From Deltaproteobacteria bacterium (lineage in GTDB: Bacteria; Myxococcota_A; JAADFL01): DNA of 64,000 bases. The notes under the pieces are model-generated. The model was not told where the DNA came from and ran no database searches. It saw only the letters and a list, made by a program, of their open reading frames with translations. The stretch lies in NCBI GenBank assembly GCA_013152945.1, contig JAADFL010000193.1, forward strand, positions 1,991-65,990, given 5' to 3'. Below are positions 7,972 through 60,651 of this stretch, piece after piece. Position 1 is the stretch's first letter. Each line of letters begins with the position of its first letter. Both the position numbers and the translations under genes were made by a program.

Positions 7972-7975
7972 GATA

Positions 7976-10900
7976 TCAACCCTCCTCTACCATGGGCCTG
8001 ACCGTCTTCCTTGCAAACAAGGTGTACATCGTGGGCACCACGAACAATGTAAACAAGGTGGCGGTCAAAAGGCCTCCGATTACAGCCTTTGCCATGCCTG
8101 ACCAGCCTGCGGATCCCTCCCCTATTTCCAAGGCAAGGGGCACCATTGCCAGTATCGTGGTCAGGCTCGTCATCAGGACCGGCCGCATCCTGATCCTCGC
8201 AGCCTTGGCTATCGCCTCCACACGGCCGACGCCCCGCTGCCTGAATTGGTTGGCTGCATCAACCATTACTATGCCGTTGTTCACCACGATCCCAACGAGC
8301 ATGATTACTCCAACAAGTGATGAAATATCCATGGTACTGCCCGTAAGGCTGAACATCAAGACAACGCCGATACCTGCCAGGGGCACTGTGAAGATGATGA
8401 TAAAAGGTTGCCTGAAAGACTCGAACTGGCTCGCCATTACCATGTAAACCAGGAATATGGATATTAGCAGGGCCAGCCCCAGGTACTTGAAGGAAGTCTG
8501 GAAATCCTCCGCCGTTCCACCGATGTAATAGCTGAAGTCTTCAGGCCAGGGATAGCTCTTCAGCAGTTTGTCGACGGCTGCAATGGACCTTCCAAGGTCC
8601 TTGCGATGTTCATTGCCGTCCTTGTCTTTGTAACTCGCCTTCAGGTAACAAAGGAGCCTTGTCACCCTGCCCTGGTCCAACCTCGTGATATCCACGGGTC
8701 CGAGATCCATGGTGATGTGCGCCACGTTTTCCAGGGGCACCACCTTGCCGGTGGGAGTTACGATCGGCGCACTGCGGATCTCATCGAGGTTCAGCCTGTG
8801 TTTCTTCGCGTACCTGACTATGATGTCGTACTCGTCTCCCCCCTCCGAGTAACGTCCCGCAAGCTTGCCCATGAAATATGCCGAAACAGCACTGCCCACC
8901 GCTGCCGTCGAAAGCCCGAGCCTGGCCATCTTGGGCCTGTCGAATACTATCCTGACCTCGGGTTTCTTCTCTTCCATGGAAAAATTGACTGCCGCCATCT
9001 GCGGCATCTTCAACAGATCATCCTTGAGTTGAAGTCCAATCTCCCTGGACTTGTCCAGGTCGTGTCCCCTGATCTGGACCTCGATGTCTCCCTCGCCGCC
9101 CATGGGGTTGAAAGGCATCGCCACCGTCACCTTAATGCCGGGCACGTCGGACAGGGCCTTTCTTACAGCGTCTTCCAGCTCTTTTTGACTCCTCTTCCTG
9201 TGGTCCGGGGAAACCAGCGGCACCCTTATGTTCCCGGCATGTATGCCCTTTGAGAAAAACGCCGCAAAATCCTTGCCCACCCCCACGTCCAGGGCGATCA
9301 TCCTCCTCTCTTCAGGCTTTACGACCTGTTTCACCTTTTTTTCGACCTCCTTGAAAACCTTGTACGTCTCGCCCAGCTTGTTGCCGACCGGAGTCTCTAT
9401 GGAGATGAAAAGCATGGACTGGTCATCCTCTGCCACGAACTCCGTGGGAAGCATGATTGCCAGAAGCACTGTAAGCGCCAGGATACCGAGTAATCCTACT
9501 CCCACCACCCACCTGTGCGATAATGTCCAGTCGAGGGTCCTGCCGTAACGCTCCCGAAGGGTGATGAATACATCATGCTCCCTTGCCCTTTTGAGCAGGC
9601 GCTTGGCCCTCTCACTGCCCAGTAGTCTCGATGCGGACAAAGGAATAAAGCTCAATGCGACAATAAGCGACACGGTCAGGGAAAAACATATGGTTATCGC
9701 CATGTCCTTGAACATGACACCGGCAATGCCCGGAACAAAGAGAATCGGGACGAATACGGACACTGTCGTCAAGGTAGAGGCAGTGACTGCTGTCCCGACC
9801 TCCTTTGCGCCGCGCACGGCCGCATCCCAGCCTCCGACTCCTTCTTCACGCAACCTGAATATGTTTTCGAGCACCACTATCGCGTTGTCCACAAGCATGC
9901 CTATGGCAAGGGCCAGGCCGGACATAGATAGTATGTTCAGTGTCATGCCGGCCTCGTCCATTACAGCGAACGTGGCTATTACTGACAGTGGTATGGCAGA
10001 CGCCACTATGAGTGAACTCCGCATGTTCTTCAGGAACAGCAACAGCACCAGGAATGTTATAACAACGCCGATCATGGCGGTTGAGGACAGGTTGCCGAGA
10101 GACTGGTGAATAAAGTCGGCCTGGTTGAACACCACCTTGAAGTCTATGTCCGCAGCAGTAGCCTTTTTTATCCCCGGAAGCGCGGCCATGACATTGTCGG
10201 CCGCCAGGACAGTGTTTGCTCCGGACTGTTTTCTCACCACCATGAATACGGCCGGCTTATCGTCGACTTCCAGGATCCTCCTGCTCTCGTAGAATGTGTC
10301 TTCGACCCTTGCCACTTCCTTGAGGGTAATAGGCTCTGGGCCGTATTCGCCCTTTTTCATGCCTACGACCACGTCGCCTATCTCTTCCACGCTCCTGTAC
10401 TTGCCCTCGGTCTTGATTGTGAAATCCAGTCTGCCCTGTTCTATGGAGCCGCCCGGGACCTGGGTATTCTCACGGTATACCGCGCCCACGACAGCATTTA
10501 CGTCCAGGCCGAAGGCAGCCACCTTGTTCGGGTCGAGCACGACGTGGATCTCGCGTTCAAGCCCTCCATGGGTGTCGGCGGAAGCGATCCCGGTCACCCT
10601 TGCCAACCTGGGCTCGACCTCCTTTTCTGCTATTTGCCTGAGCTTGTCCAACGGGTAAGGGCCTGTGATCATCATCATGACCACGGGTTGCAACGAGGGA
10701 TCAAATGCAAAGATGATGGGTTCCTGGGCATCGTCCGGCAGGAACCTCTTGATAAGCTCGATCTTCCTCCTGACATCTGTTTCAGCTTGCTCCATGTCCT
10801 TGCCCCAGTCGAACTTGACCTCGACAAGTGAACTGCCCTGCTTGGACGTGGAGTGAATCTCGGTGGCGCCCTTGGCAGAGGACACGGCCCCCTCGATCGG

Positions 10901-11095
10901 CCTGGTCACCAGGGTTTCTATGTCTTCCGGGCTCGCGCCGGTGTAGTTGACTATGACAGCCACCATTGGGAACTCGATATCCGGGTACAGGTCGAGTTGA
11001 AGCCTGGACAGGGAGAACAGGCCGAACCCCACGATGATGAGGTAGATCATCAAGAATGTAACGCCCCGCCTGACAGCAAGGGATGAAAGGTTCAT
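7976..11095 (-). CDS. RND efflux transporter permease (AcrB/CzcA family).
   Basis: The track ORF is 7976..11221. The true start is probably the internal ATG at 11095 (MNLSSLAVRRGVTFLMIYLIIVGFG...), which overlaps the MFP stop as ATGA. There are 12 TM segments and two large periplasmic loops; the length of about 1040 aa is typical of HAE1/HME RND pumps. Confidence 0.9.
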   Translation of the reverse strand: MNLSSLAVRRGVTFLMIYLIIVGFGLFSLSRLQLDLYPDIEFPMVAVIVNYTGASPEDIETLVTRPIEGAVSSAKGATEIHSTSKQGSSLVEVKFDWGKDMEQAETDVRRKIELIKRFLPDDAQEPIIFAFDPSLQPVVMMMITGPYPLDKLRQIAEKEVEPRLARVTGIASADTHGGLEREIHVVLDPNKVAAFGLDVNAVVGAVYRENTQVPGGSIEQGRLDFTIKTEGKYRSVEEIGDVVVGMKKGEYGPEPITLKEVARVEDTFYESRRILEVDDKPAVFMVVRKQSGANTVLAADNVMAALPGIKKATAADIDFKVVFNQADFIHQSLGNLSSTAMIGVVITFLVLLLFLKNMRSSLIVASAIPLSVIATFAVMDEAGMTLNILSMSGLALAIGMLVDNAIVVLENIFRLREEGVGGWDAAVRGAKEVGTAVTASTLTTVSVFVPILFVPGIAGVMFKDMAITICFSLTVSLIVALSFIPLSASRLLGSERAKRLLKRAREHDVFITLRERYGRTLDWTLSHRWVVGVGLLGILALTVLLAIMLPTEFVAEDDQSMLFISIETPVGNKLGETYKVFKEVEKKVKQVVKPEERRMIALDVGVGKDFAAFFSKGIHAGNIRVPLVSPDHRKRSQKELEDAVRKALSDVPGIKVTVAMPFNPMGGEGDIEVQIRGHDLDKSREIGLQLKDDLLKMPQMAAVNFSMEEKKPEVRIVFDRPKMARLGLSTAAVGSAVSAYFMGKLAGRYSEGGDEYDIIVRYAKKHRLNLDEIRSAPIVTPTGKVVPLENVAHITMDLGPVDITRLDQGRVTRLLCYLKASYKDKDGNEHRKDLGRSIAAVDKLLKSYPWPEDFSYYIGGTAEDFQTSFKYLGLALLISIFLVYMVMASQFESFRQPFIIIFTVPLAGIGVVLMFSLTGSTMDISSLVGVIMLVGIVVNNGIVMVDAANQFRQRGVGRVEAIAKAARIRMRPVLMTSLTTILAMVPLALEIGEGSAGWSGMAKAVIGGLLTATLFTLFVVPTMYTLFARKTVRPMVEEG

Positions 11096-12276
11096 TTGGC
11101 CCCACCTCCGGAAATATCCTCGGCCGGTTTGATTACCTTGACCTTTTGGCCGTCCTTCAACCTGTGCTGTCCCCTGATGACCACGTGTTCCCCGTCTTTC
11201 AGGCCATCCGTAACCTCCCAATAGTCGTTGTTCTGCATGCCCAGGGTAACGGTCCTCTGGTGGACCACATCGTTCTCCACTACGAACACCTTCCGCAGCA
11301 TGTGTCCCCTGGTTTGCTTTCCGAGCAATTTTTCATCAATAATCAGGGCCTGCTCGGGTACGACCAACACGTTTTTCCGCCTGGAAACAACGAACCTGGC
11401 CCTACCGTACATGCCGGGCTTGATCAATCTCTTGCCCGAGGCCTTGTCCTTGGGGTTTTCCAGGATCGCCTCGATGGTATTCGTCCTGGTGGCAGGATTT
11501 AGGTATGGAAAGATATTGATCACCTTTGCATTGAAGACCCTTCCCGGGTATGCATCCAGGACCACCTCCACGTTCATGCCTTCCTTGACCTTCGGCACAT
11601 CACGCTCCACCAGGTTTGTCCTTACCTTCAGCCTGTCCACCTGCATGATTACGCAGAGGGGTATCTGCGGGACCGCCATGTCACCCCTTTCGAGTCTTTT
11701 TTCTGCGATTATTCCGCTTATCGGCGCGTTTATCACTGCATTCCCGGCTCTTACCTCGAGCTGTCCCCTGCTTGCTTCGAGTGCCCGGCGCCGAGCCAGG
11801 GTGGAGAGATAGGATGTCTGTATCTTGTCGTAAGTGCTCTGGGTTATCACGCCGGCCTTGAGCAATTCCTTGGAGCGATCGAACTCACTCTTCAGGTTCT
11901 TTATCTGCACGTCCAAGGCATCGAGCTGGGCCAGGATCTGGTCCAGCCCCTTGTCCAATCCTTCCTTTCGAATTAGGGCGATCCTTTGGCCCCGCTTGAT
12001 CTCGTCGCCGTTGTTCCATGGGAAGTAAACTATGCGGTCCGGAATGGGCGAAAAGATCGTGACTTGCATGTAGGCTGTGATGTTTGCGGCATAGTCCAGT
12101 ATCTCGGCCACATCCTTACGCCTCACCTGGTCGATCATAACGCTCTTTACCTGCTCACCCTGCTCTTGCCCGGATTTCTTGTGGCAGCCGCTTGCGATTG
12201 AAAGAGTCATAGAACAGAGTAAGAGCACAAACATTTTTTTGACTTGCTTCTCCATCCGGATAATCTCCATTTTCAC
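11092..12276 (-). CDS. RND efflux periplasmic adaptor (membrane fusion protein), lipoprotein.
   Basis: 394-aa ORF with lipobox LSIASGC. It has the coiled-coil hairpin and barrel-sandwich features of the HlyD/AcrA family. Its start overlaps the PadR stop (ATGA) and its stop overlaps the RND start. Confidence 0.8.
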   Translation of the reverse strand: MKMEIIRMEKQVKKMFVLLLCSMTLSIASGCHKKSGQEQGEQVKSVMIDQVRRKDVAEILDYAANITAYMQVTIFSPIPDRIVYFPWNNGDEIKRGQRIALIRKEGLDKGLDQILAQLDALDVQIKNLKSEFDRSKELLKAGVITQSTYDKIQTSYLSTLARRRALEASRGQLEVRAGNAVINAPISGIIAEKRLERGDMAVPQIPLCVIMQVDRLKVRTNLVERDVPKVKEGMNVEVVLDAYPGRVFNAKVINIFPYLNPATRTNTIEAILENPKDKASGKRLIKPGMYGRARFVVSRRKNVLVVPEQALIIDEKLLGKQTRGHMLRKVFVVENDVVHQRTVTLGMQNNDYWEVTDGLKDGEHVVIRGQHRLKDGQKVKVIKPAEDISGGGAK

Positions 12277-12935
12277 TTTCCGGTCTTTGTTCGCCCCCTG
12301 GAATCCTTCTTTCCGGCTCTTGTTTCCCTCTTGGCATCTTTCTTTTCGTCTTTTCGATCCTGGAAAAGATCGAGGACATAGGAAACAAAATCCTTTTCCG
12401 CCTGTATGTGTCTCTTTGCAAACTCGTAGATCATGGAAACACCCAGCAAATCCTTCCCCTGTTCAAGAATTCCGGTCCGCTCGTCGAGCCCATGGATGCG
12501 TTTCAAACCACTGATTGATTCCTCCACTGCCTCAATCGATTTAAGGCGCCTTTTGAGCCCCAGCACACGCTGGTTCATGGATGTCTTGGACAGGTTTGCA
12601 AGAGCGACAAGGAAAGGGTTCCTCAACGGCTTCATTTCCGAGAGCAGGTCCACGATACTTACAGACAATGCAGAGAGCCCTTTCTCGTTTATCTCGTGTA
12701 TCTTACGGGTCGCCCCCTGTCCCTCGTGCTCGAAGCGGGTCGTTATCAACTCCTTGTCTTCGAGGGTTTTCAACACCCTGTAGATCGAGGAGAAGCTGAT
12801 GTCCGTCCACTCGGTGAGTCTTCTTTCCCTAATCTTCTCTTCCAGGCTATAGGCGTGAATCGGACCCTCGGAGATGAGACCGAGTATTACGATTTCCTTT
12901 TCAGACAAAGGTTCCTTTCCAGCCATTGAAACCAT
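12273..12935 (-). CDS. PadR-family transcriptional regulator with an extended C-terminal domain, first gene of the efflux operon.
   Basis: 220-aa ORF. LGLISEGPIHAYSL...IYRVLKTLEDKELI is the PadR winged-HTH signature. Translationally coupled to the MFP gene. Confidence 0.7.
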   Translation of the reverse strand: MVSMAGKEPLSEKEIVILGLISEGPIHAYSLEEKIRERRLTEWTDISFSSIYRVLKTLEDKELITTRFEHEGQGATRKIHEINEKGLSALSVSIVDLLSEMKPLRNPFLVALANLSKTSMNQRVLGLKRRLKSIEAVEESISGLKRIHGLDERTGILEQGKDLLGVSMIYEFAKRHIQAEKDFVSYVLDLFQDRKDEKKDAKRETRAGKKDSRGRTKTGK

Positions 12936-13114: not shown

Positions 13115-13175
13115 AAGGTGTGAAAAAATTTAGAGGTGTAAAATTGAGAGGTGTAAAATTGAGAGGTGTAAAATG
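13115..13175 (+). repeat. Tandem 15-bp direct repeat GAGGTGTAAAATTGA (3 perfect copies plus one degenerate), whose last copy supplies the SD and the ATG of the YitT gene.
   Basis: Read directly: aaggtgtgaaaaaattta / gaggtgtaaaattga (13133-13147) / gaggtgtaaaattga (13148-13162) / gaggtgtaaaATG (13163-13175). Each unit carries GAGGTG (SD-like) and TAAAAT (-10-like). Confidence 0.6.
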
Positions 13176-14048
13176 AAAGGCAAGCTGATGAGAAACGTCT
13201 TTGATTGGACCTCCATAATCATCGGATCTCTTGTAATGGCATTAGCATTCGACCTGTTCCTCGTGCCCAACAATGTAGTGCCGGGCGGTGTCACCGGAAT
13301 TGCCATGCTGTTGAACTACTGGTTCCATACGCCGATAGGCATGGTGACTGTTATCGCCAACATCCCGCTTTTCGGCCTTGGAATAAAGGTGCTGGGCAAA
13401 TCATACGGTATAAAATCCATTGCAGGCATGCTTCTTTCCTCAATCATGATCGATTTCTTTATGTACATCGTGCCTCTCGAGGCAGCCACACATGATCAAA
13501 TGCTTGCAAGCATATTCGGTGGAATCGTTCTCGGAGCGGGTCTGGGCCTGGTCTTCAGGGGTGGAGGCTCCACCGGTGGAGCCGACATAGTTGCCCAGGT
13601 CTGGGCAAAGTACTCCAACTTATCCACAGGCACGACCCTGCTCATAATCGACTTTGTCGTGATATCCGCCGCAGGCCTTGCGTACCACGGCTTCGAGACG
13701 GTCATGTACGGATACCTCAACCTGTATATCCACGCCAGGGTCGTGGATCTCGTGCTCGAAGGCGTCAGCTATACAAGAGCGGTCTTCGTAGTTTCCAAGA
13801 AAGCTGAAACAATCGCCGAAGAAATACTGGAACACATGAATCGCGGCGCCACGCTCCTTGCAGCCACGGGAGCATACTCGGGAATACACAGGAACATGGT
13901 ATTCTCGGTCATGTCCAAGAAGGAAATCGCCAGGGCAAGAGAACTTATCCGCGTTATTGATCCGGATGCCTTTGTCACTATTACCGATGTACACGAAGTC
14001 CTGGGACAAGGTTTCAGACCCAGGATGCCTACAGGCAGCGTGGTATAG
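13173..14048 (+). CDS. YitT-family membrane protein (DUF161 + DUF2179).
   Basis: 291-aa ORF. Multi-TM N-terminal part with GGVTGIAML and GGSTGGADI motifs typical of YitT/DUF161, plus a C-terminal soluble DUF2179-like domain. Confidence 0.7.
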   Translation: MKGKLMRNVFDWTSIIIGSLVMALAFDLFLVPNNVVPGGVTGIAMLLNYWFHTPIGMVTVIANIPLFGLGIKVLGKSYGIKSIAGMLLSSIMIDFFMYIVPLEAATHDQMLASIFGGIVLGAGLGLVFRGGGSTGGADIVAQVWAKYSNLSTGTTLLIIDFVVISAAGLAYHGFETVMYGYLNLYIHARVVDLVLEGVSYTRAVFVVSKKAETIAEEILEHMNRGATLLAATGAYSGIHRNMVFSVMSKKEIARARELIRVIDPDAFVTITDVHEVLGQGFRPRMPTGSVV

Positions 14049-14152: not shown

Positions 14153-15676
14153 ATGTCGGGCGGCTTTAGAAAGGAAACTACCAGGCAGCAATCCGGATCA
14201 AGAAGTATCAGTGAGCTGGATGACATTCAACTGGCTCTGCAAGAACGGCCGCATGTGAGCATCCGCGCCCGCATAACCGCTGTGTTCACCATACTCTTTT
14301 TGCTCATGTGCGCCGTTACCGTATCTGCTGTAATATTGCTGCAACGAGTCAGGCAAAAACACATATTCTTCGAAAAGGTCAGCAGCTTTGTTTTCGAAAT
14401 TCAGCAGGCCCGCCGCTTCGAGAAAAATTATTTCCTATACGGAACCAACCTGCATGATGCTATTGCAAACGTCCATGTGGCACGCGAGCAGTTCAAAAAA
14501 AACAAAAAAGATGTTCAGGCGGTAATCGGTGAAAAGAAACTGAATGCCATGTTCCAAAGCCTGGAAACGTACCAGGACAAACTCGAAAAACTCCTTGACA
14601 GGCACATGGAAGGCACGCAAAAAAATAAATTGGAGTCGGCTATTCGAAAATATGGCGCCCAAATCCTTGATGATGCGCAGGATACCATGGAACGTGAACG
14701 TGTGACCATTCACTCGATGCTCCAGGTTTCAACCATAGTAGCCCTGTCATTCCTTGGATTAATGGTGGTGCTACTCGTGGTTTTCGGGGGTTTCATTACC
14801 CAGGCGGTCCTGCGACCCCTGGGCCGCTTCATGCGGTATGCAGACCGGATAGGCAAAGGCGACTTCTCACCGATTACACCGGCCCGAAAATACAGGGACG
14901 AGTTCAGCATGCTTGCCATTGCAATGAACCAGATGTTGAGGGAGCTGTTACGCCGCCACCAGCAACTGATACAATCGGAAAAAATGGCCGTGGTAGGGAA
15001 CCTGACATCAGGCATCGCCCATGAACTCAACAATCCCCTGAACAATATCGGCCTGTCCGTGGAGTCTCTCCTGGACGGTTTCGAAGACTACCGTCCCGAG
15101 CAGGTAAGGCACATCCTGGAGCAGATTGCCACGCAGGTTGACCGGGCCAGCGGCACGGTCAGGAATCTTCTTGACTTTACCCGGAAAGAACAACAATTAC
15201 TGACATCACTGGATATTAACGAAGTGATAGAAGCTACTTTGAAATTAGTGGAGAACGAACTGAACCTGGCTGACATCGATCTTGAAAAAGACCTCGCATC
15301 CGGCCTTCCCAGGGTTTCAGGTAATCCCAGGGGCCTGGAACAGGTCTTTCTGAATCTTTTCCTCAACGCCATACAGGCCATGGGGGAACAGGGAAAGCTT
15401 AAGGTCCGTTCATACCGGGATGGAGAATGGGTCAAGGTCGATGTTTCAGACACGGGACCCGGCATTGAGGAGAAACACATGAAGCATCTGTTCGATCCCT
15501 TTTTCACGACCAAGGAACCCGGGAAAGGAACAGGTCTGGGCCTCTCGGTAAGCCAAGGCATCATCGATGAACACAAGGGCCGGATAACCGTATCCAGCAT
15601 CATGGGCCAAGGAACCACTTTCACAATCAACTTGCCTTTGGCGGCAATACAAGAAAGTTTGGAGAAAATGCCATGA
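14153..15676 (+). CDS. Sensor histidine kinase (2 TM helices, periplasmic domain, HAMP, HisKA, HATPase_c).
   Basis: 507-aa ORF. H-box IAHELNNPLNNIG, N-box LFLNAIQAM, G-boxes DTGPGI and GTGLGLS. TM helices at about aa 45-65 and 185-207. Confidence 0.85.
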   Translation: MSGGFRKETTRQQSGSRSISELDDIQLALQERPHVSIRARITAVFTILFLLMCAVTVSAVILLQRVRQKHIFFEKVSSFVFEIQQARRFEKNYFLYGTNLHDAIANVHVAREQFKKNKKDVQAVIGEKKLNAMFQSLETYQDKLEKLLDRHMEGTQKNKLESAIRKYGAQILDDAQDTMERERVTIHSMLQVSTIVALSFLGLMVVLLVVFGGFITQAVLRPLGRFMRYADRIGKGDFSPITPARKYRDEFSMLAIAMNQMLRELLRRHQQLIQSEKMAVVGNLTSGIAHELNNPLNNIGLSVESLLDGFEDYRPEQVRHILEQIATQVDRASGTVRNLLDFTRKEQQLLTSLDINEVIEATLKLVENELNLADIDLEKDLASGLPRVSGNPRGLEQVFLNLFLNAIQAMGEQGKLKVRSYRDGEWVKVDVSDTGPGIEEKHMKHLFDPFFTTKEPGKGTGLGLSVSQGIIDEHKGRITVSSIMGQGTTFTINLPLAAIQESLEKMP

Positions 15677-16602
15677 GCTTGTCCGTGTACCTGCCTGTGG
15701 CGGGGTGCTCGCTGAATATTTTCCTCCTCTTGGGCATGGGAGGCCTGGTAGGATTCCTGTCCGGTCTCTTCGGTGTAGGCGGCGGATTTCTCTTGACTCC
15801 ACTTTTGATCATGATCGGGGTTCCGCCGACCGTGTCCGCGGCTTCGGACTCGAACCAGATTGTCGCTGCATCCGCTTCAGGCACCTATGCACATTCCCGT
15901 GCCGGATCGGTCGATTTCAAGATGGGCTTGCTCTTGTTATTGGGCGGCGTGGCAGGCGGCTCGGTGGGAGTGATCATCATCAAGATGCTGCGTGCGCTTG
16001 GAGCAGCGGATTTCACCATCAAGGTCACGTACATTATCATGCTCGGCGGAGTGGGCGCATACATGTTCTTCGAAAGCCTGGGCAACCTGCGGGGAACGAG
16101 ACAGGCAAGAATTCCCTTCGAAGAGCCCAAACCATCGATTTATGCGCGCATAGTCGGTGCGCTGCCACTAAGAACAGAGTTCAAACGTTCAAGGGTAACC
16201 TTGTCGATACTTGTGCCGTTGTTGCTCGGCGTACTGGTCGGTATACTTGCGGCCATCATGGGCGTCGGCGGCGGATTCATCATGGTGCCGGTAATGGTAT
16301 ACCTGCTTCGCATGCCCATGCACGTAGTAGTGGGTACGAGCCTGTTCCAAATCTTGTTCACCTGCCTGAACGTCACTGTTCTCCAGGCATCGGTGAATCA
16401 CACGGTCGACATCCTTTTGGCGCTTATCCTTCTTATCGGTTCGGTAATAGGGGCGCAGCTCGGCGCCAAGGTCAGCCGGAGGCTCAAGGGAGACCAACTC
16501 AAGATCCTCATGGCGGTTATCGTCCTGGTTGTCATGGTCAAGATGCTCGTGGGCCTGTTGGTCGCCCCTGACATATTACTTGCGTACCGGGGAGGTCATT
16601 GA
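15673..16602 (+). CDS. TauE/SafE-family (DUF81) sulfite/organosulfonate exporter-type permease.
   Basis: 309-aa ORF. Two internal repeats each with GVGGG (GLFGVGGGFLLTPLL and IMGVGGGFIMVP), the hallmark of DUF81. ATGA overlap with the kinase gene. Confidence 0.8.
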   Translation: MSLSVYLPVAGCSLNIFLLLGMGGLVGFLSGLFGVGGGFLLTPLLIMIGVPPTVSAASDSNQIVAASASGTYAHSRAGSVDFKMGLLLLLGGVAGGSVGVIIIKMLRALGAADFTIKVTYIIMLGGVGAYMFFESLGNLRGTRQARIPFEEPKPSIYARIVGALPLRTEFKRSRVTLSILVPLLLGVLVGILAAIMGVGGGFIMVPVMVYLLRMPMHVVVGTSLFQILFTCLNVTVLQASVNHTVDILLALILLIGSVIGAQLGAKVSRRLKGDQLKILMAVIVLVVMVKMLVGLLVAPDILLAYRGGH

Positions 16603-16603
16603 A

Positions 16604-17359
16604 ATGTCTGCCTGGTTATTTCTTCATTCGGTCATGTTCCTGGCAACTTCGGCCAATGCCGGCGACTTTACCGTAAATCCCGGAACAGTCCAGGTCGGAC
16701 TATTTTTCAACGGCGCCGATATTAGGGTCACGGCCGAGGTCCCGGCAGGCACAGGCGTAGCCGTGGAGATAAGCGGCCGTGAAAACCCGGTCAACCTGAA
16801 AAAAAAGGGCAAAGTCTTGGGCCTGCTGTGGATGAACGTAGGCGATGTAAAAATAGAACATGCACCGGAATCCTATCTGCTCGAGTCATCTTCAGAACTA
16901 AACAAGCTTGCTCAAACAGACGAATTGATTCGCCTGGACATGGGAAGACCCGGCTTGCACGACAAGTTATTGGCAAACGGAGAACCAGCAGACAAAGCCT
17001 TGTTCAGGGAATTTTTCAAACTCAAAGCTTCCGGGGGACTGTATGCCATACATCAGGGCCGGTTGAATCTTGAAAAGACGAAAAATCCTTCCATGGAAAA
17101 AGTAACGGCAATATTTCACTTGCCTGCGAAGATACCGCTCGGCAATCACCAAATCCGTGTAATCGATTTCAATAACGGGCACGGCGAGGTAATATATTCC
17201 GGATCACTTGCGGTCGAAAAGGTCGGTCTTGCTCGATGGATAACCCATGTCGCGTATAATCACGGCCTCTTGTATGGTATCAGCGCCGTTGTAATTGCCC
17301 TGATAGTGGGGCTGATTACGGGTTACCTTTTCAGCCTGGGCTCCAAGGGCGCCCACTAG
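16604..17359 (+). CDS. Exported hypothetical protein with N-terminal signal peptide and C-terminal TM anchor.
   Basis: The track ORF starts at 16529. The ATG at 16604 follows the TauE stop by 1 nt, has a GGGGAGG RBS, and gives MSAWLFLHSVMFLATSANA (signal peptide). The C-terminus AVVIALIVGLITGYLF is a TM helix. Resembles DUF81-associated periplasmic partners. I cannot name the family with confidence. Confidence 0.5.
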   Translation: MSAWLFLHSVMFLATSANAGDFTVNPGTVQVGLFFNGADIRVTAEVPAGTGVAVEISGRENPVNLKKKGKVLGLLWMNVGDVKIEHAPESYLLESSSELNKLAQTDELIRLDMGRPGLHDKLLANGEPADKALFREFFKLKASGGLYAIHQGRLNLEKTKNPSMEKVTAIFHLPAKIPLGNHQIRVIDFNNGHGEVIYSGSLAVEKVGLARWITHVAYNHGLLYGISAVVIALIVGLITGYLFSLGSKGAH

Positions 17360-17371
17360 GACGAGTTTGAT

Positions 17372-19927
17372 TTGTCGATTTGGAACAAAATATTTTCTTC
17401 ATCGCATCCAGGTGAAGTCCATGAACACGGCATCCGTTACCGTCTGGAACGCTTCCAGGAGATTGTCCGGCGCAACAACCGGGTGCTGGAACGGATAGCC
17501 GATGCAAGTGAAAAGCTGGGTGGAGAATACATATTCGACGTCCAATACCTCCATGATTTCGTAGACAGACTGGGAGACGATGTCAGGGCCATCGCCCTTG
17601 CTCTTAATGAACTGACAGGCAACCGGTATCAGGAATTACTGCGCATAGTCAGTTCAATCAACGACAACCTGCGTGCCGTCCTCGAATCCAGGACCGTAGC
17701 CCCTGAATCCGAAATCGTGTTGAGACTCGACCGGATTGGAACCGAACATGCCGACGTCACAGGATCCAAAATGGCCCGGCTCGGAGAAATCCAGCGAATA
17801 CTCGGGCTCACCACTATGCCGGGCGTGGTGGTAACCGCGTCCGCATGCACCCAATTCTTGGAATCCGCCGGGCTGGAACCCTTGATAACGGCTATGCGGA
17901 ATACGAACGGTGAAGAACTCTTCGAACTTGCCGGGGAACTCCGCAATCAAATAATACACGCCGATGTCCAAAAATGGCTGCAAAAGAAGCTCAGGCGCTC
18001 GGTCAGGGCAATATCAAAACGCTTCCATACTCAATACCTCTCGGTTAGAAGCAGCGCAATAGGCGAAGATGAAGACCTTGTATTCGCAGGTCAGTACCTC
18101 ACCGAACTCGGGGTACGGCCGGAGGAGATATGTGATGCATATCGAAAGGTCGTTGCCAGTCTTTATGACAGGCATGTCATGGAATACCGTATCCGGCACA
18201 GCCTTCCACCCGCCGACGGATTGATGGCGGTAGGCATCCAGGTGCTTCTCCAGCCGAAATGTTCAGGCATAATCTATACATTGGATCCTACCAATCCTGA
18301 CAGGGATGTTATCCTGGTTTCCTCAGGTTTCAGCCTCGGCGCATCCGTAGTGGATGGCAGTGCGCCGGTGGATCGTTTTATTATCGACCGCAATCCACCT
18401 CATCATATACTGGAAAGTCATATTGCCGAGAAGACCACCGAATGTGTAATCAACGAGTCGGGTGGAACTATTGTCAGGGAGATCGAACCCGAACGCCGCA
18501 AGATTCCAACGCTCGAACCGGGACAACTTCAGAACCTGTGCAGGCAGGCCTTGAAAATAGAACGCCACATGCGGTGCGCCCAGGATATCGAGTGGGCCAT
18601 GGATGAAAAGGGGCGAATATTCATACTCCAGTCCCGCCAGTTGAAAGTAACCCACATCGAGCAAAACAACTTGAATATCATGGGTCCTATTTCTCACGAG
18701 GTGTTGCTCAAGGATTTGGGAGAAGTCGCTTGTAGAGGGGTGGGATTCGGCCGGGTATGGATCGCGGATAACAGGGAAGAGAACGCGGAAGACAATGAAA
18801 TGCCGGACCATGCTGTTCTCGTATCCAGGACCGCTTCGCCGAAGCTTGCAGCCCTTCTGCCACGAGCATCCGCCCTTTTGACCGATTATGGGACCACGAC
18901 GGGTCACCTTGCCACTGTTGCCCGGGAGTACCGCATTCCTGCAGTCGTGGATACCGGGGCAGCCTCCCGGATACTCGAAGACGGCCGGATGGTCACTGTG
19001 GACACGGAAGAAAACATGGTCTATTCGGGGAAGGTACAAGAGCTGATAAAAAAACAACTGCTGCAGGCATCGTCGTACGAAGACAAGAAAGAATTCCGCA
19101 TGTTGCGCAGGCTGCTGCGAAACATTGCGATCCTGAACTTGAGTGACCCGACCTCGCCGGATTTCAAGGCCCAGAACTGCCGCACCTACCACGACATCAT
19201 CCGCTTCGCCCATGAAATAGCAGTCCAGGAGTTGGCCACGGGAAACTGGCTCCGTTCGAATCGCCGGTGTAATGCTGTTTTCCGCCTTGATATAGACATC
19301 CCGATAGACCTGGTAATCATCGATCTCGGAGGCGGTATAAAGGCCACCCCGAGAAAAACAGTGGTTACATCTCAGCATATCCTGAGCCGTCCCCTGACCG
19401 CCCTGCTGGCCGGAATGACATTGGAAGGTGTTTGGAAAACCGAACCGGCCGACATGGACCTGGGAGGTTTCATGTCCAGCGCGACTCGAACGACTGCTTT
19501 AACAGGGCCCGAGGCGGCGCGCCCTGAACAGAACGTGGCCATTGTTTCAAACGACTACCTGAACATGAGTCTCAAGCTCGGATACCACTTTAACCTCGTC
19601 GATTGCCTGATGAGCGACAACGCGGAAGACAACTTCATATATTTCCGCTTCGCCGGGGGTGTAACCGAACTGTTACGCCGTTCCCGAAGGGCATTGCTTC
19701 TCAGAGAAATCCTGGAGCACTATGATTTCGTAGTCGAGGGCAAGGGAGACCTGGTAATTGCACGATTGAAGTTCCTGGACTTGACACGGATGCAAAAGAA
19801 ACTTGAAATGATAGGCCGATTGATCGGCTTTACCCGGCAACTCGATATTCACCTGCGCAGTGACGACCTGGTAAGGCATTATATACAAGAGTTCCTTGCC
19901 GGCTCTGAAATGCCGTCAAGCAGCTAA
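17372..19927 (+). CDS. PEP-synthase/pyruvate-phosphate-dikinase-like enzyme: PPDK_N ATP-grasp domain and phosphohistidine swivel domain, with a non-canonical C-terminal domain.
   Basis: 851-aa ORF. SVRSSAIGEDEDLVFAGQ...MAVGIQVLLQPKCSGIIYTLDP matches the PPDK_N nucleotide-binding domain. TDYGTTTGHLATVAREYRIPAVVDTG matches the PEP-utilising mobile His domain (catalytic His present). The last 290 aa do not look like the PEP/pyruvate TIM barrel. Confidence 0.7.
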   Translation: MSIWNKIFSSSHPGEVHEHGIRYRLERFQEIVRRNNRVLERIADASEKLGGEYIFDVQYLHDFVDRLGDDVRAIALALNELTGNRYQELLRIVSSINDNLRAVLESRTVAPESEIVLRLDRIGTEHADVTGSKMARLGEIQRILGLTTMPGVVVTASACTQFLESAGLEPLITAMRNTNGEELFELAGELRNQIIHADVQKWLQKKLRRSVRAISKRFHTQYLSVRSSAIGEDEDLVFAGQYLTELGVRPEEICDAYRKVVASLYDRHVMEYRIRHSLPPADGLMAVGIQVLLQPKCSGIIYTLDPTNPDRDVILVSSGFSLGASVVDGSAPVDRFIIDRNPPHHILESHIAEKTTECVINESGGTIVREIEPERRKIPTLEPGQLQNLCRQALKIERHMRCAQDIEWAMDEKGRIFILQSRQLKVTHIEQNNLNIMGPISHEVLLKDLGEVACRGVGFGRVWIADNREENAEDNEMPDHAVLVSRTASPKLAALLPRASALLTDYGTTTGHLATVAREYRIPAVVDTGAASRILEDGRMVTVDTEENMVYSGKVQELIKKQLLQASSYEDKKEFRMLRRLLRNIAILNLSDPTSPDFKAQNCRTYHDIIRFAHEIAVQELATGNWLRSNRRCNAVFRLDIDIPIDLVIIDLGGGIKATPRKTVVTSQHILSRPLTALLAGMTLEGVWKTEPADMDLGGFMSSATRTTALTGPEAARPEQNVAIVSNDYLNMSLKLGYHFNLVDCLMSDNAEDNFIYFRFAGGVTELLRRSRRALLLREILEHYDFVVEGKGDLVIARLKFLDLTRMQKKLEMIGRLIGFTRQLDIHLRSDDLVRHYIQEFLAGSEMPSSS

Positions 19928-19957
19928 GGACCTGTTAAGGTGGTGTTGGAGGAAAAA

Positions 19958-20347
19958 ATGGGAAAATCCGGCAGAGTCCTTGTCCTGGACGATGAAAAGA
20001 TAGTATGCGACAGGTTGACCGAGCATTTTTCCAAAAAGGGACTTGAAGTGGAAGCGTTCACGGATAGTCAACAGGCGATAGACCGTATTGCGAGTCAGGA
20101 CTTTGACGTGATCATTACCGACTTGAAGATGAAAGGCCCGACCGGTATGGATGTAGTCCACTTCGTGCGCCGAAACCGGCCGGGCGCCGAGCTGATAGTA
20201 ATAACCGGATACGCCTCGATCGATACTGCCAGAGAGGCCGAGTACTCGGGTGTGTACAAATTCATCACCAAGCCTTTCAAGATGAACAACCTGGCCAAAT
20301 CAGTGATGAAAGCCGTACACAAGGCACAAACCAGAAAAGGCAGGTAA
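19958..20347 (+). CDS. Stand-alone response-regulator receiver (CheY-like) protein.
   Basis: The track ORF starts at GTG 19940. The ATG at 19958 has a GGAGG RBS 6 nt upstream. VLVLDDE, phospho-acceptor in VIITDLKM, T/S in ITGYAS, K in ITKPF. No output domain. Confidence 0.8.
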   Translation: MGKSGRVLVLDDEKIVCDRLTEHFSKKGLEVEAFTDSQQAIDRIASQDFDVIITDLKMKGPTGMDVVHFVRRNRPGAELIVITGYASIDTAREAEYSGVYKFITKPFKMNNLAKSVMKAVHKAQTRKGR

Positions 20348-20352
20348 GAGCC

Positions 20353-20718
20353 ATGAGTGGGAAAAAAGTAATCGTGCTCGACGATGAACCCATAGTGGGA
20401 GAACGGCTGAAACCGGCCCTTGAAAAAGCCGGCTTCGAGGTAGAGACCTATACCGAGAGCCAACAAGTCGTGGATAAATTGGCAAAAGAACGTTTCGATG
20501 TCCTGGTAACGGACTTGAAGATGCGAAAGCCCGACGGTTTGGAAGTCATGCGTTTCGCAAAAGAACAATGGCCTGGAATCAAGGTGATAATAATAACCGG
20601 ATTCGCGACCGTGGAGACAGCGACCGAGGCGCTCAAGGAGGGTGCGGTCGAATTCATTGCAAAGCCGTTCAAGATACGCGATTTAAGAGACCTGGTAGTG
20701 CGTATAACCACTGTGTAG
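20353..20718 (+). CDS. Second stand-alone receiver protein, a paralog of the preceding gene.
   Basis: 121-aa ORF. VIVLDDEP, LVTDLKM, ITGFAT, AKPF. About 45% identical to the previous REC by eye. Confidence 0.85.
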   Translation: MSGKKVIVLDDEPIVGERLKPALEKAGFEVETYTESQQVVDKLAKERFDVLVTDLKMRKPDGLEVMRFAKEQWPGIKVIIITGFATVETATEALKEGAVEFIAKPFKIRDLRDLVVRITTV

Positions 20719-21074: not shown

Positions 21075-21887
21075 TTATATCAATGGTTCCGAGTGATCGA
21101 GGCCATCGCGATCAATGCTCTTTACACCGTCTACCCCCTTTGCGATCTCCAGTACCGCTTCCACCTGGGCCTCGGTCGCAAGCCGGCCGGACAAGGACAA
21201 TGCCCCCTCCTCTGCAGTCACATCCACATCCAGTTCCGATGTCCTGGGGTCAGTGGCCAAGGCTGCCGCCACCCGGCCGGCCAACAGGTAGTCATTAAGG
21301 CAACGGCGTTGCTTTTCGTCGGGGACGAATTCCGGACGGCGGGCCGCAACGGAAACCATTTCGACCGCACTTGAAATTTCCATGGTGTGGAGGTTCAAAA
21401 TCATGTCATATAATTGCGGATCGAGGATGTCCACGCCATAGAGAAACTTGGTCCACATCCTGCGTTGCTCGTCAACCTTGTGGACATAGGCTACTGCGTC
21501 GTCATAGCTTATATCCCTCTTTTCCCGGAGCATGCGTATTCTCAATGCCAACGGCGCAATCATGCGAACACGCAGGATATTGGTTTCAGGAGGCAACAAG
21601 AGATGTCCTGCATTACCCTCATATATTACATTCCCCTCCTTGACCTCCTCGCAAAGCGCAAGTTGAATGAAAGCGAGATAACTTCTTCGCTTGTGGCCCA
21701 ATCTCTCGAGCAACCCCGGGGGTTTGAATATTGCATCTTGCAAAGTGTCTTCGCGAGGACCCATGCGTGAAGCATTCTTGACCAAGGTCTCCAGTGTAAC
21801 TATTCGGTATCCCAACTTCTCGGCAAGACCCTTGGCAAGCATCTCGCCACCGCTCGCCGTGCCACGGGATATGGTTATAATAGCCAT
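21075..21887 (-). CDS. Cytidylate-kinase-like family P-loop protein with a C-terminal BON domain.
   Basis: The track ORF extends to 21917. The ATG at 21887 has an AAGGGG RBS and gives MAIITISRGTASGG (P-loop of the Cytidylate_kin2-like family). The C-terminus EAQVEAVLEIAKGVDGVKSIDRDGL is BON-like. Confidence 0.6.
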   Translation of the reverse strand: MAIITISRGTASGGEMLAKGLAEKLGYRIVTLETLVKNASRMGPREDTLQDAIFKPPGLLERLGHKRRSYLAFIQLALCEEVKEGNVIYEGNAGHLLLPPETNILRVRMIAPLALRIRMLREKRDISYDDAVAYVHKVDEQRRMWTKFLYGVDILDPQLYDMILNLHTMEISSAVEMVSVAARRPEFVPDEKQRRCLNDYLLAGRVAAALATDPRTSELDVDVTAEEGALSLSGRLATEAQVEAVLEIAKGVDGVKSIDRDGLDHSEPLI

Positions 21888-22162
21888 CTTACCCCTTTTC
21901 TCCTCTCGTCCGGCCAAAACAAAAAGCCGATCGCGGCAATAATATTTTCCATATGAATCACGCTAAAACCAAAAAGTGTCAACCCCTGTTTATAACATAG
22001 GGCATTTACCGTAATGCATATCAATTGCATCAGTACCGTGCCGAAGTCCCCAAACATATGCCGGCAACTCTATTTTATTGGATTTATCGGACTTTTTGTG
22101 CCTGCTTCAGGCGTTCCGGGGAAAAACAGGATAAACAAAAAAAATCCCTTCGGGATTTTCCC

Positions 22163-22280: not shown

Positions 22281-23708
22281 ATGAGAACCAAGTACTACTT
22301 ATTGTTTTCAACAGTCCTTGCAATGGTTGTTGCAGTGCCCACAGGATCCATGGCTCACAAGATCAATTCCAAAAAGGGGGTCTACTTCGTGACTCCCATA
22401 TTAACCGAAAAATCATGGATCGAAACCGAGGCATGGTTGAAACTGGACATGAGAGACCGGGATGAACCGTCAAGGCCCAATCCGGCTGTAGGATTTTATC
22501 CCGACCTGGGTTTGGAAGTCGGCGTTTTCAACCTCTTTTCCGTGAAGACGCATATGCCAATGTGGGTGAACAACTGGACTGAAAAAAAGGACCAGGATAT
22601 CGACGACTTCTTTATCCCCAACTGGTACATAGGAGGAAAGGTCGATATCAGCGCCATACTCGATGAAGCACTAGGCGATTCATCGCCAAAATGGCTGTCC
22701 CTGGCGGCTTCGTACGACGTCGGCATTCCAACAGGTTTCGGCCTCCATGGAATAAACAAGACAGCATCAGGCGCTTGGGCCGATAAGGCGGACCTTGTTC
22801 ACCAGGCAAAGTTGCTCGGTGGTGTCAGCTTCTACAAGTTCAGCATACAGGCGGATGTTGGAATCAATTATTGGCAGATAGATGACCGGTCTTTCCTCAA
22901 CAATACCTCGAGTGGCACCGCCGGTGTCGTCACACCTTACAAGAACAGAACCGACATTGTTTACGACATAGCTCTTCCATACTACTTCAGGTACGAGTCC
23001 ACAGTGCTCATGGTAGAATTGAACGGTCTTTCTGCATACGTGGAAAATCAAAGCGGCACAAAAAAAGAAACAAAGAATCAGCTTTTCATCACTCCCGGCG
23101 TTACCTTTGCCCCGGGCAGCAATTTCACGTTGGGATTCGGATTTGCCATCCCGCTGGTCGATGATTTCTACAACGACAACTTCCGTTTCATCATGAACTT
23201 CCGTTATGCATTCAGTGTCCCGGGTGTAAGCACTGCTTTCTGGCATAAGAAGGAAGAAAAAGAAGGAGAAAAGAAACAAGAAAAGAAAGAGGTTAAGAAA
23301 CCATCGGTCGAAAAGAAGACACAACCCAAGGCAGAAGAGAAACCGGCAGAGCCGGTAAAACAAGAAAAGAAAGAAAAGGAGCAACCGGCAAGCAAAGCGG
23401 GAGAATCCAAGGCAAAGCCCGCAACTCCTGAAGCTTCCTCGAAACCAAAGGCTGAAAAGAAAGAGGAGGCCCCGGCCGTACAAGAGCAGAAACAGGGTGA
23501 AAAGGTTCAGAAGAAGGAAGAGAAGAAGGCCAAGCCTGAACCGAAGAAACAAGAGAAAAAACAAGAGAAGAAGGCCAAGCCTGAACCAAAGAAACAAGAG
23601 AAAAAACAAGAGAAGAAGGCCAAGCCTGAACCGAAGAAACAAGAGAAAAAACAGGAGAAGAAGGCCAAGCCTGAACCAAAGAAACAAGAGAAAAAAGAAA
23701 AGAAATAA
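22281..23708 (+). CDS. Secreted protein with an outer-membrane beta-barrel-like domain and a Lys/Glu/Pro-rich repetitive C-terminal tail (4 copies of AKPEPKKQEKKQEKK).
   Basis: 475-aa ORF. Signal peptide MRTKYYLLFSTVLAMVVAVPTGSMA. About 300 aa of alternating amphipathic beta-strand-like sequence ending in the aromatic-terminated strand FIMNFRYAF. Then about 150 aa of KEKP low complexity. Confidence 0.55.
   Translation: MRTKYYLLFSTVLAMVVAVPTGSMAHKINSKKGVYFVTPILTEKSWIETEAWLKLDMRDRDEPSRPNPAVGFYPDLGLEVGVFNLFSVKTHMPMWVNNWTEKKDQDIDDFFIPNWYIGGKVDISAILDEALGDSSPKWLSLAASYDVGIPTGFGLHGINKTASGAWADKADLVHQAKLLGGVSFYKFSIQADVGINYWQIDDRSFLNNTSSGTAGVVTPYKNRTDIVYDIALPYYFRYESTVLMVELNGLSAYVENQSGTKKETKNQLFITPGVTFAPGSNFTLGFGFAIPLVDDFYNDNFRFIMNFRYAFSVPGVSTAFWHKKEEKEGEKKQEKKEVKKPSVEKKTQPKAEEKPAEPVKQEKKEKEQPASKAGESKAKPATPEASSKPKAEKKEEAPAVQEQKQGEKVQKKEEKKAKPEPKKQEKKQEKKAKPEPKKQEKKQEKKAKPEPKKQEKKQEKKAKPEPKKQEKKEKK
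23518..23702 (+). repeat. 45-bp in-frame tandem repeat, 4 copies, inside the OMP-like gene.
   Basis: gccaagcctgaaccgaagaaacaagagaaaaaacaagagaagaag repeated four times with only synonymous changes (ccg/cca, caa/cag). Encodes (AKPEPKKQEKKQEKK)x4. Confidence 0.8.
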
Positions 23709-60200: not shown

Positions 60201-60651
60201 CAAGGTCGTGGACAGGAACGATATTGGGATGCTCGAGCTGCGCGGTTACCTTTGCCTCCCTTAAAAACCTGGCTATTGTCTCGGATGTCCCACTCATCCT
60301 GGAGGCGGAATCGAGAGGCGAATCGCTGTCGATGGACAGGTACTTCAAAGCTACCTTCCTGCCAAGGTTGTTGTCGAACAATTCAACGACCCTTCCGAGG
60401 GCGCCACGACCGAGTTCATCGGCTTCATCCAACGTCAGAGATTCTGCCGAGGCACCGGATTCGCTTGAATATCTTTCACCTGAGTCCACGGTGATGCTCT
60501 TTCCTTGTTCACCGGCCAAGGACAGCAGGCCCGGATGATTTTGGTCGGTAGGATCAGCCAATCTTCCCTCCAATAATTCAATATTGAAGCTGCATCTCCA
60601 AAGCGCTATCAAACGTAACATTAACATGCTAGAAAAGTAAGCGTGTTTCAA
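57298..60651 (-). CDS. Ser/Thr protein kinase, single TM, then about 14 WD40 repeats.
   Basis: 1117-aa ORF. Hanks kinase motifs GRGALGRV, VALKYL, HRDIKPANVMV, DWGVAKV, GTPAYMSPEQ. TM helix VLMLSSGAALVSLLLAIVFITIAY. Recurrent WD40 signatures (...SPDG..LA...D.T..LWD...G). The exact start is uncertain. Confidence 0.85.
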   Translation of the reverse strand: MKHAYFSSMLMLRLIALWRCSFNIELLEGRLADPTDQNHPGLLSLAGEQGKSITVDSGERYSSESGASAESLTLDEADELGRGALGRVVELFDNNLGRKVALKYLSIDSDSPLDSASRMSGTSETIARFLREAKVTAQLEHPNIVPVHDLGIRKDGTLFYTMKMVKGRTFSEVLKSCKTLGERLVYLDHFIDLCNAVAYAHDRGVIHRDIKPANVMVGEFGETMLLDWGVAKVKGEKDLRGVKLSRDITSMEGMDATGTVDGTTIGTPAYMSPEQARGLVDKVDERSDVWSLGAVLYELLTGLRPFSGNSPSEVLEKVRKGRIIPVNHIVPEAPEELAAIAHKALQRERNKRYASAGGLARDVQAFQQGARVMAYHYSKPEIIKRFAGRHKVLMLSSGAALVSLLLAIVFITIAYKSEAEANREANFHIAEALNEKASTLSREKRFLDAAVFASAALLRNPANAVGPYFSRRFIHRRPESMKLLAEAAFWEMESKTRPVEGFQTSFDTVYSPSTGSFSPDGRLFAAGSYDGKLLLFDTEKMDGLHKAEALDEPSGVIWAVRFSPDGKYIATGSSTGRVVLWDARKKKIARELVKKSKRIWNLAFSNDGRILAAACDDGFVRAWKISDGSEVLNENFSSVPIYDVIFLHNGKILISAGRDRTIRFWDMASGKVDASLKGPKGSIWSVDVSRDQKLLAVACGDGSVWVFDIGSMKPAWHFKKHKDIVFGVRFSSDGRFLVSAGMDRKVGIWQAETGSLLQVIAGHNGSVWGAYFSPDVSRLATVSEDKSVKIWRVKHGRDKTVFTGFKDQVWGLDFTPDGKKIVGAGFDGTVRIWDVYTGKVEHVLRVSEKMLTCIAVSPDGRHAATSGFDRLTHLIDIKNGTVTASLKGHDETVFWVEYSSDGRYLVTSDLSGKIILRDAETGRILNTMERKGVRVWQVDFTPDSKRLVISGSDDKAVMWGIKEDRVLKEFKGHTDWVSGVAVSRDGKYLATSGRDRTIILWDFKKGTILRRLKGHRQWVNNLEFSPDGKELLSTSDDGRVILWDVLTGWPLLVVRARMNVIAARFSPDGERFAIGDKNDVRLYPTTPMQLYENPEKLLQEDQKNAGVELDGFKLKIK

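Follow-up and report, generated by a model that had tools for sequence, protein, structure and literature searches.

What is an apparent phosphoenolpyruvate (PEP) synthase doing in a row of genes that opens with a sensor histidine kinase (HK) and closes with two response-regulator receivers? The question is raised by positions 14153–20718 of a 64,000-nucleotide stretch of DNA from a Deltaproteobacteria bacterium (contig JAADFL010000193.1), referred to as a whole as the window. Pfam searches identify six open reading frames (ORFs) there, all in one direction, which encode in order an HK, a TauE/SafE permease (TauE), an Alph_Pro_TM protein, a protein resembling PEP synthase (PpsA), and two single-domain receivers (REC1 and REC2). 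This arrangement is a real, recurring gene module of many bacterial phyla. Its PpsA-like member, which we named PpsL, appears to represent a widely distributed family of dikinases whose acceptor domain is new and whose genes sit within a conserved two-component and permease module; what we propose for its function is inferential.

PpsL (17372–19927, plus strand) has the same sequence as NOZ87790.1, which is recorded as a "hypothetical protein" of a Deltaproteobacteria metagenome-assembled genome (MAG). Pfam recognizes PPDK_N at residues 129–431 (PF01326, 223.7 bits) and PEP-utilizers at residues 478–546 (PF00391, 61.2 bits), and nothing beyond residue 546. Together with an alignment of 74 homologs, with identities down to 31%, and a full-length AlphaFold2 (AF2) model, these matches delimit an N-terminal extension (residues 1–109; 17372–17698), an ATP-grasp domain (residues ~110–440; 17699–18691), a phosphohistidine swivel domain (residues ~441–555; 18692–19036) and a C-terminal domain (residues 556–851; 19037–19927). 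The swivel-domain residues G507, H512, R518 and P523 are invariant in all 74 homologs, the codon of the catalytic His512 lying at 18905–18907, and so are K133, R226, S227, S228, E232, E407, Q420 and R422 of the ATP-grasp domain. Enzyme I (EI) of the phosphotransferase system (PTS) has a homologous swivel domain.

The resemblance to PpsA stops at the swivel domain. Chains of PpsA in the PDB align to residues 109–561 only, and the NCBIfam equivalog models for PpsA score far below their cut-offs (NF005057, 267.7 bits against 598; TIGR01418, 255.2 against 739.75), matching PpsL only over model positions ~4–478 of ~790. The full-length AF2 model (predicted local distance difference test score, pLDDT, 87.5; predicted template-modelling score 0.80) retrieved PpsA (2ols, 465 columns), the ATP domain of rifampin phosphotransferase (RPH), HpeI (9goj) and PPDK in Foldseek searches. 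The ATP-grasp domain superposes well on the RPH ATP domain (TMt 0.90, root-mean-square deviation 2.5 Å), and every full-length match runs through the N-terminal two-thirds of the protein only. By sequence and homology, PpsL has all that is required for phosphorylating His512 from ATP in the manner of PpsA and PPDK, and it lacks any pyruvate/PEP site. Its N-terminal extension, absent from PpsA, is modelled as three long helices (residues 13–48, 57–82 and 88–104; pLDDT 81–97) and has no Pfam match.

Where PpsA has its PEP/pyruvate TIM barrel, PpsL carries 296 residues (556–851) for which neither Pfam nor NCBIfam has a model. This segment has no Pfam match at E≤10, and PEP-utilizers_C was not found. 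A profile built from 33 sequences had no match at E≤10 among all PDB chains, those of PpsA, PPDK and EI included, and a Foldseek search of the domain model against the PDB and BFVD returned nothing at E≤0.001 or with a template-modelling score above 0.25; the rifampin-binding domain was likewise not matched. AF2 folded the domain alone with a pLDDT of 75.8, and within the full-length model its blocks mostly reach 80–97. The fold consists of two or three helices, a small sheet, a four-strand antiparallel meander, a helix, a hairpin and two long helices, and is thus predicted to be a mixed alpha/beta structure with an antiparallel sheet rather than a (beta-alpha)8 barrel. By all of these measures (Pfam, PDB profile search, AF2 fold and Foldseek), we ruled out an ordinary TIM barrel. 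An earlier note on this DNA, made from the letters alone, had proposed that the PpsA-like protein keeps the ATP-grasp and catalytic-His swivel domains and replaces the barrel with an unrelated domain. Both parts of that proposal are upheld, and the alignment to a PEP-utilizing TIM barrel that would have contradicted it was looked for and not found.

Conservation within the C-terminal domain is very strong. A single helix bears the invariant motif C603-x3-H607-D608-x2-R611-x2-H614-E615 (encoded at 19178–19216), and further motifs read LGYH739F, FRFxG762G763 and RRxRR773; the conserved positions include P644, G737, H739, F758, F760, G762, G763, R770, R772, R773, G815, Q823 and D825. Some 14 polar residues stay unchanged even in homologs with only 31% identity, a set that, judged from the alignment, looks typical of an active site rather than of a docking surface. 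At a clustering level of 50% identity, the domain profile retrieved 1547 representatives. In every one of the best 150, the domain is C-terminal in a protein of ~850 residues or belongs to a shorter protein that is probably a fragment, and no other architecture was found among them; a plasmid collection contained no homolog of the domain.

To how many bacteria does this protein belong, and in what company? A protein search with PpsL returned 330 homologs, nearly all of ~850 residues, and a genome scan of species-representative genomes located at least 586 loci in about eight phyla. The best 80 loci come from MAGs labelled Thermodesulfobacteriota or "Deltaproteobacteria", Myxococcota, Gemmatimonadota, Acidobacteriota, Binatia, Planctomycetota, Zixibacteria, Abyssobacteria and Acidithiobacillales, and cultured carriers include Thermodesulfobacterium commune DSM 2178 (homolog AIH04645.1). 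Synteny was assessed from called genes on three long contigs and from 85 loci labelled by ORF and BLAST searches. The order TauE, Alph_Pro_TM, PpsL, REC hardly varies: PpsL is preceded by TauE in 64 of 71 loci and by Alph_Pro_TM in 59 of 71, an HK is found upstream in 56 of 66, and a REC stands beside PpsL or is fused to it in 55 of 62, with three more cut by contig ends. Such an arrangement is far beyond chance. The smallest loci contain only HK, TauE, Alph_Pro_TM, PpsL and a single REC, as in three examples. PADLOC gave no match for the HK, TauE, Alph_Pro_TM, PpsL or the Cytidylate_kin2-BON protein described below, and only generic REC-domain matches for the receivers; on this result, we rejected the idea that the module is an anti-phage defence system.

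The two membrane-associated members appear to form a unit. TauE (15673–16602, plus strand) is a polytopic permease of the TauE/SafE (TSUP) family that covers the whole PF01925 profile (169.5 bits; cut-off 32.6). The Alph_Pro_TM protein (16604–17359, plus strand; PF09608, 137.9 bits; cut-off 24.5) begins with a signal-like segment (…ATSANA|GD), continues with a periplasmic domain and ends in a single transmembrane anchor, and is likely to be a partner subunit of TauE. It scores 80.5 bits against NCBIfam TIGR02186, below the cut-off of 255.25, and so appears to be a divergent, non-alphaproteobacterial branch of its family. A tblastn search on a replicon of the alphaproteobacterium Shinella found the pair by itself, with a 4-nt overlap and no HK, PpsL or REC, and a tandem-Usp gene convergent to it (positions 5359–6432 of that locus, L086); the search for Alph_Pro_TM homologs, subject to a word-index limit, returned module-type sequences only. 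Because the pair stands alone in Shinella, it appears to be an autonomous unit to which PpsL, REC and HK were added. Full-text literature searches yielded nothing on PF09608 or TIGR02186. A sulfonate- or sulfite-related substrate had been suggested for this system; that suggestion rests on the Pfam name TauE only, no gene of sulfur metabolism is a conserved neighbour of the module among the called genes and 85 loci, and the suggestion is unsupported.

Nucleotide-binding proteins recur at the edges of the module. In the window, a gene for a Cytidylate_kin2 and BON domain protein (21075–21917, minus strand) lies convergent with the six-gene block; its P-loop-like segment, SRGTASGG, lacks the Walker-A lysine. 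A Cytidylate_kin2(-BON) gene adjoins the module, co-directional or convergent, in 33 of the 61 loci with enough flank, and thus appears to be a frequent seventh, accessory member, with the module reaching past 20718. Longer paralogs of this protein pair with a second, longer TauE, a REC and an HK in five loci. In full-text literature searches, PF13189 was met only in a DolP paper.

A second architecture consists of an HK, a sigma-54-dependent NtrC-type regulator and then a Usp-TauE-Alph_Pro_TM-PpsL-REC series, the Usp gene preceding TauE in nine such loci; taken with the Shinella case, this makes it appear that Usp and the permease are repeatedly associated. In eight of 12 loci (~1.6 expected from background), the stretch from the NtrC-type gene to TauE contains a -24/-12 sigma-54 element, mostly near the start of the Usp ORF, so that the genes from Usp to REC behave as a regulated effector unit. 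Elsewhere, extra PpsL paralogs with the same C-terminal domain adjoin the main module (nine loci), some with their own upstream receiver and some as tandem pairs or triplets without one. Of 27 extra copies that do not directly follow Alph_Pro_TM, 13 have their own adjacent REC and 14 have none, the latter suggesting an intrinsic enzymatic role.

What could the two-component proteins contribute? The HK (14153–15676, plus strand) has two transmembrane segments around a helical periplasmic domain of ~125 residues, followed by HAMP, HisKA (PF00512, 50.6 bits) and HATPase_c (PF02518, 97.7 bits) domains, with the H-box AHELNNPL. Among NCBIfam models it comes nearest to those for AtoS, ZraS and NtrB-like kinases, reaching the cut-off of none. 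The periplasmic sensor (residues 64–189; within 14153–14800) has no Pfam match. HK orthologs in related loci align over their full length, sensor included, at 33–55% identity, and in 58 of them the sensor motif R87-R88-x-E90-K91-N92 is invariant, as are Y140, R165 and G168. The motif is a candidate ligand site and, since the sensor is orthologous and keeps it throughout, the input signal is probably the same everywhere.

REC1 (19940–20347, plus strand; Response_reg, 83.9 bits) and REC2 (20353–20718, plus strand; 93.5 bits) are stand-alone receivers, of NtrC/AtoC type at the level of NCBIfam families, so that HK and receivers appear to match in family. They are paralogs, 47% identical over 113 residues, and both keep the D-D-D-T-K set (D17, D18, D61, T89 and K111 in REC1; D10, D11, D54, T82 and K104 in REC2). 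The full D-D-D-T/S-K set is present in 161 of 165 receivers of related loci, the remaining four being ORFs cut short where contigs end. PpsL of Gemmatimonadota, Acidobacteriota and Polyangiaceae can carry REC1 as a C-terminal fusion, and 10 of the 330 PpsL homologs, of ~980–995 residues, bear a C-terminal Response_reg domain; these fusions argue for physical contact between receiver and PpsL. The fused receiver is of REC1 type and the free receiver after it of REC2 type. Lone receivers in the closest loci are also of REC2 type, free receivers being 55–75% identical to REC2, which appears to be the more widely conserved receiver of the module. The gap between PpsL and the next REC is -22 to +30 nt in most loci, where the two are apparently translationally coupled.

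Together, these observations lead us to favour a reading that we hold tentatively, at somewhat less than an even chance: the HK phosphorylates the receivers, and the receivers control a new "X, water dikinase", PpsL, that is linked to the permease. The HK would sense a periplasmic cue through its conserved helical domain and phosphorylate REC1 and REC2, which may then bind PpsL and switch its activity. The ATP-grasp domain would load His512 from ATP with release of AMP and Pi, as the conserved residues and the mechanism of PpsA and PPDK suggest, and the swivel domain would carry the phosphoryl group to a second site in the C-terminal domain. There, the invariant Cys/His/Asp/Arg/His/Glu cluster, the Gly-Gly pair and the Arg-rich helix may bind a non-pyruvate, probably anionic, acceptor. 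TauE and Alph_Pro_TM could be a two-subunit anion permease that supplies the acceptor or removes the product, with Cytidylate_kin2-BON here, and Usp in other lineages, as putative accessory nucleotide-binding regulators. This reading draws support from the intact catalytic residues together with the confidently folded C-terminal domain and its ~14 invariant polar residues. It is also supported by the characterized swivel-His dikinases (PpsA, PPDK, rifampin phosphotransferase and HpeHI), which phosphorylate an acceptor at a second site (PMC12167813). The matching families of HK and receivers also speak for it, as do the minimal loci, in which the HK has no partner available other than the one REC, and the extra PpsL copies without a receiver.

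Several observations weigh against a receiver-controlled dikinase. We have identified no acceptor of PpsL, and among the called genes and labelled loci the conserved neighbours include no enzyme to consume a phosphorylated product, which is unusual for a metabolic kinase and would better fit a purely regulatory device. By analogy, a C-terminal receiver fusion appears typical of hybrid kinases, in which the receiver is the substrate; receiver-regulated enzymes usually have their REC at the N-terminus. In the NtrC variant the HK has a response regulator of its own, so the PpsL-coupled REC looks like the partner of PpsL, and since the permease pair stands without PpsL in Shinella, a shared substrate is not required. 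Some of these points lend weight to the main alternative, possible but unlikely, in which PpsL is itself a dikinase-type histidine kinase that donates the phosphoryl group of His512 to the aspartate of REC1, REC2 or both. The C-terminal domain would then be a receiver-docking platform, the PpsL-REC fusions would be the equivalents of hybrid kinases, and the canonical HK would add an environmental signal as second input or would dephosphorylate the same receivers. Such a phosphodonor would account for the C-terminal attachment of REC1-type receivers to PpsL, which resembles that in hybrid HKs and in fusions of CheA with CheY, and also for the translational coupling of PpsL and REC, the private REC kept by PpsL in the NtrC variant, the RECs beside 13 of the 27 extra copies, and the lack of conserved downstream metabolic enzymes. 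There is, moreover, the precedent of VadK of Mycobacterium tuberculosis, a PPDK-derived regulatory histidine kinase that autophosphorylates (PMC13400623). VadK, however, has neither a C-terminal domain nor a receiver partner, and full-text literature searches turned up no His-to-Asp transfer from a PEP-utilizer swivel domain. Nor does this alternative explain the polar cluster: docking needs little, because receivers catalyse their own phosphorylation, and a domain of ~290 residues with ~14 invariant polar positions exceeds that need. In the minimal loci, furthermore, the only REC would have to serve the HK as well. The fusions lend indirect support to a phosphohistidine protein that feeds the receivers, a possibility raised in the earlier note, but fit a receiver that regulates the enzyme equally well. 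A broader version, similarly unlikely in our estimate, would have PpsL found a third route to receiver phosphorylation. PpsL would then be a "dikinase-type" histidine kinase, ATP-grasp and AMP-forming, with a swivelling phosphohistidine that donates to the aspartates of a receiver, free in the window and fused in the "hybrid" variants. If it were true, receiver phosphorylation would report the ATP/AMP·Pi potential beside the periplasmic signal of the HK, and the output would gate the permease.

Two further readings concern the permease and the annotation. PpsL might be a PTS-like regulator or energizer of the TauE and Alph_Pro_TM pair, with the phosphoryl group of His512 reaching the permease or its solute directly or through the receivers, and with phosphorylation state gating transport as EI-Ntr/NPr/EIIA-Ntr controls K+ transporters. 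The homology of the swivel domain to that of EI would fit, as would the retention of the TauE-Alph_Pro_TM-PpsL-REC block even where the HK is transcribed separately, and the recurrence of nucleotide-binding regulators beside the permease pair (Usp, even in Shinella without PpsL, and Cytidylate_kin2-BON). Yet the module includes nothing like HPr, EIIA or EIIB, neither TauE nor Alph_Pro_TM has a known phospho-acceptor motif, and the argument is inferential throughout; we consider it very unlikely. That PpsL is an ordinary gluconeogenic PEP synthase with a divergent barrel is what many source annotations say, and its N-terminal 560 residues do align to PpsA. The partial and sub-threshold equivalog matches (255–268 bits against cut-offs of 598–740, over model positions 4–478 only), the missing PEP-utilizers_C domain, a C-terminal profile without PpsA, PPDK or EI matches, a fold that is not a (beta-alpha)8 barrel and an alignment to 2ols that ends after ~465 columns make this extremely improbable. 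The domain content excludes a canonical PEP synthase.

This exclusion has practical consequences. Database names of PpsL homologs include "PEP/pyruvate-binding domain-containing protein", "pyruvate, water dikinase", "phosphoenolpyruvate synthase" and "hypothetical". Hundreds of genomes of soil and sediment phyla (Thermodesulfobacteriota, Acidobacteriota, Gemmatimonadota, Myxococcota, Planctomycetota, Zixibacteria, Binatia and others) thus carry a PpsL called "PEP synthase", and metabolic reconstructions may acquire a false gluconeogenic step. The C-terminal domain is new, being without a Pfam model and without a match in the PDB or in the searched viral set of predicted structures (BFVD), and its invariant residues are immediate targets for mutagenesis. 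The receiver fusions pose a testable question, whether a dikinase phosphohistidine feeds a receiver or a receiver switches a dikinase, and either answer would extend what is known of two-component signalling or of the dikinase superfamily. The module also provides a first functional lead on the uncharacterized TauE/TIGR02186 permease pair.

The gene junctions in the window are consistent with tight coupling. HK and TauE overlap in an ATGA, read directly from the letters. The listed ORF for Alph_Pro_TM starts at a TTG (16529), but the ATG at 16604 is likelier because GGGGAGG precedes it and a signal-peptide-like segment follows, and from this ATG the gap to TauE is 1 nt. Alph_Pro_TM and PpsL are separated by 12 nt, PpsL and REC1 by 12 nt to a GTG at 19940 or by 30 nt to an ATG at 19958 with a better Shine-Dalgarno sequence (GGAGG), and REC1 and REC2 by 5 nt. 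The earlier note's picture of six co-directional, tightly coupled genes with an ATGA overlap and two paralogous single-domain receivers is borne out, with gaps of 1–30 nt at the other junctions. Its extent for the block, 14153–20718, holds for the six genes and falls short of the module, which extends to the Cytidylate_kin2-BON gene. A scan for sigma-54 promoters upstream of HK or TauE in the window found none, sigma-70 and terminator scans of the window stayed at background level, and Rfam searches of the window found no riboswitch or other RNA leader that would name a ligand. The sole Rfam match in the window is a 6S (SsrS) RNA at 61653–61839 on the plus strand (97.1 bits), far from the module.

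The flanking genes are unrelated to the module. Upstream, a PadR-HlyD-AcrB-OEP efflux operon (6517–12935, minus strand) diverges from a YitT/DUF2179 membrane protein gene (13173–14048, plus strand) that ends 104 nt before the HK. We considered YitT as a module member and rejected it, as it is conserved in none of the related loci; the efflux operon is likewise not conserved beside the module. Downstream lies a repeat protein resembling an outer-membrane protein. A 475-residue ORF (22281–23708, plus strand) without a Pfam match has an N-terminal signal-like segment, a beta-rich body and a lysine/glutamate-rich C-terminal tail with about four tandem copies of KKQEKKQEKKAKPEP. Farther away, the window encodes a MshEN-REC-TPR protein (34797–36272, plus strand), a giant all-TPR protein of 2277 residues (38056–44889, plus strand) and a 1117-residue Ser/Thr protein kinase fused to WD40 propellers (57298–60651, minus strand). 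These three genes are signalling content in the style of Myxococcota and Desulfobacterota, unrelated to the module.

How, then, does the module compare with systems already described? Beyond the HpeHI and VadK precedents, full-text literature searches found nothing on the PpsL family or on a link between PpsA and receivers. The alphaproteobacterial TauE/TIGR02186 pair, as in Shinella, is the same two-gene unit as in the window, with overlapping or abutting frames. It stands without HK, PpsL and REC; the Alph_Pro_TM protein of the window falls below the TIGR02186 cut-off. Hybrid HKs and branched two-component systems share with the module an orthodox HK, single-domain receivers with the D-D-D-T-K set and, in the fused variants, a C-terminal receiver. 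They differ in that the putative His-phosphorylating protein here is an ATP-grasp dikinase rather than a HisKA/HATPase_c kinase, and phosphotransfer to the receivers is only putative. VadK (Rv1127c), which has lost the pyruvate/PEP domain, autophosphorylates on its swivel His and is regulatory (PMC13400623), is like PpsL a PPDK/PpsA derivative without that domain. VadK, however, is truncated: it lacks a third domain and is not partnered with a receiver, HK or permease, whereas PpsL has a conserved replacement domain of 296 residues.

Rifampin phosphotransferase, PigC/RedH, HpeHI and phenylphosphate synthase, like PpsL, combine ATP-grasp and swivel-His chemistry with a non-pyruvate acceptor domain (PMC12167813). 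In RPH, PigC and HpeH this domain precedes the swivel, whereas in PpsL it follows, so that the swivel is central rather than C-terminal, and none of these enzymes is linked to a receiver. The corresponding NCBIfam models of RPH and PigC type give PpsL only 172–184 bits against cut-offs of 999–1350 (for NF041857, 171.9 against 999; for NF052631, 177.7 against 1300). As a member of the swivelling-His dikinase superfamily, PpsL shares with PpsA and PPDK the order of an ATP-grasp domain, a central phosphohistidine swivel and a third domain, together with the catalytic His and the ATP-site residues. PpsL departs from them in its unrelated alpha/beta third domain, its extra three-helix N-terminus of 109 residues, its two-component setting and, in some lineages, its fusion to a receiver.

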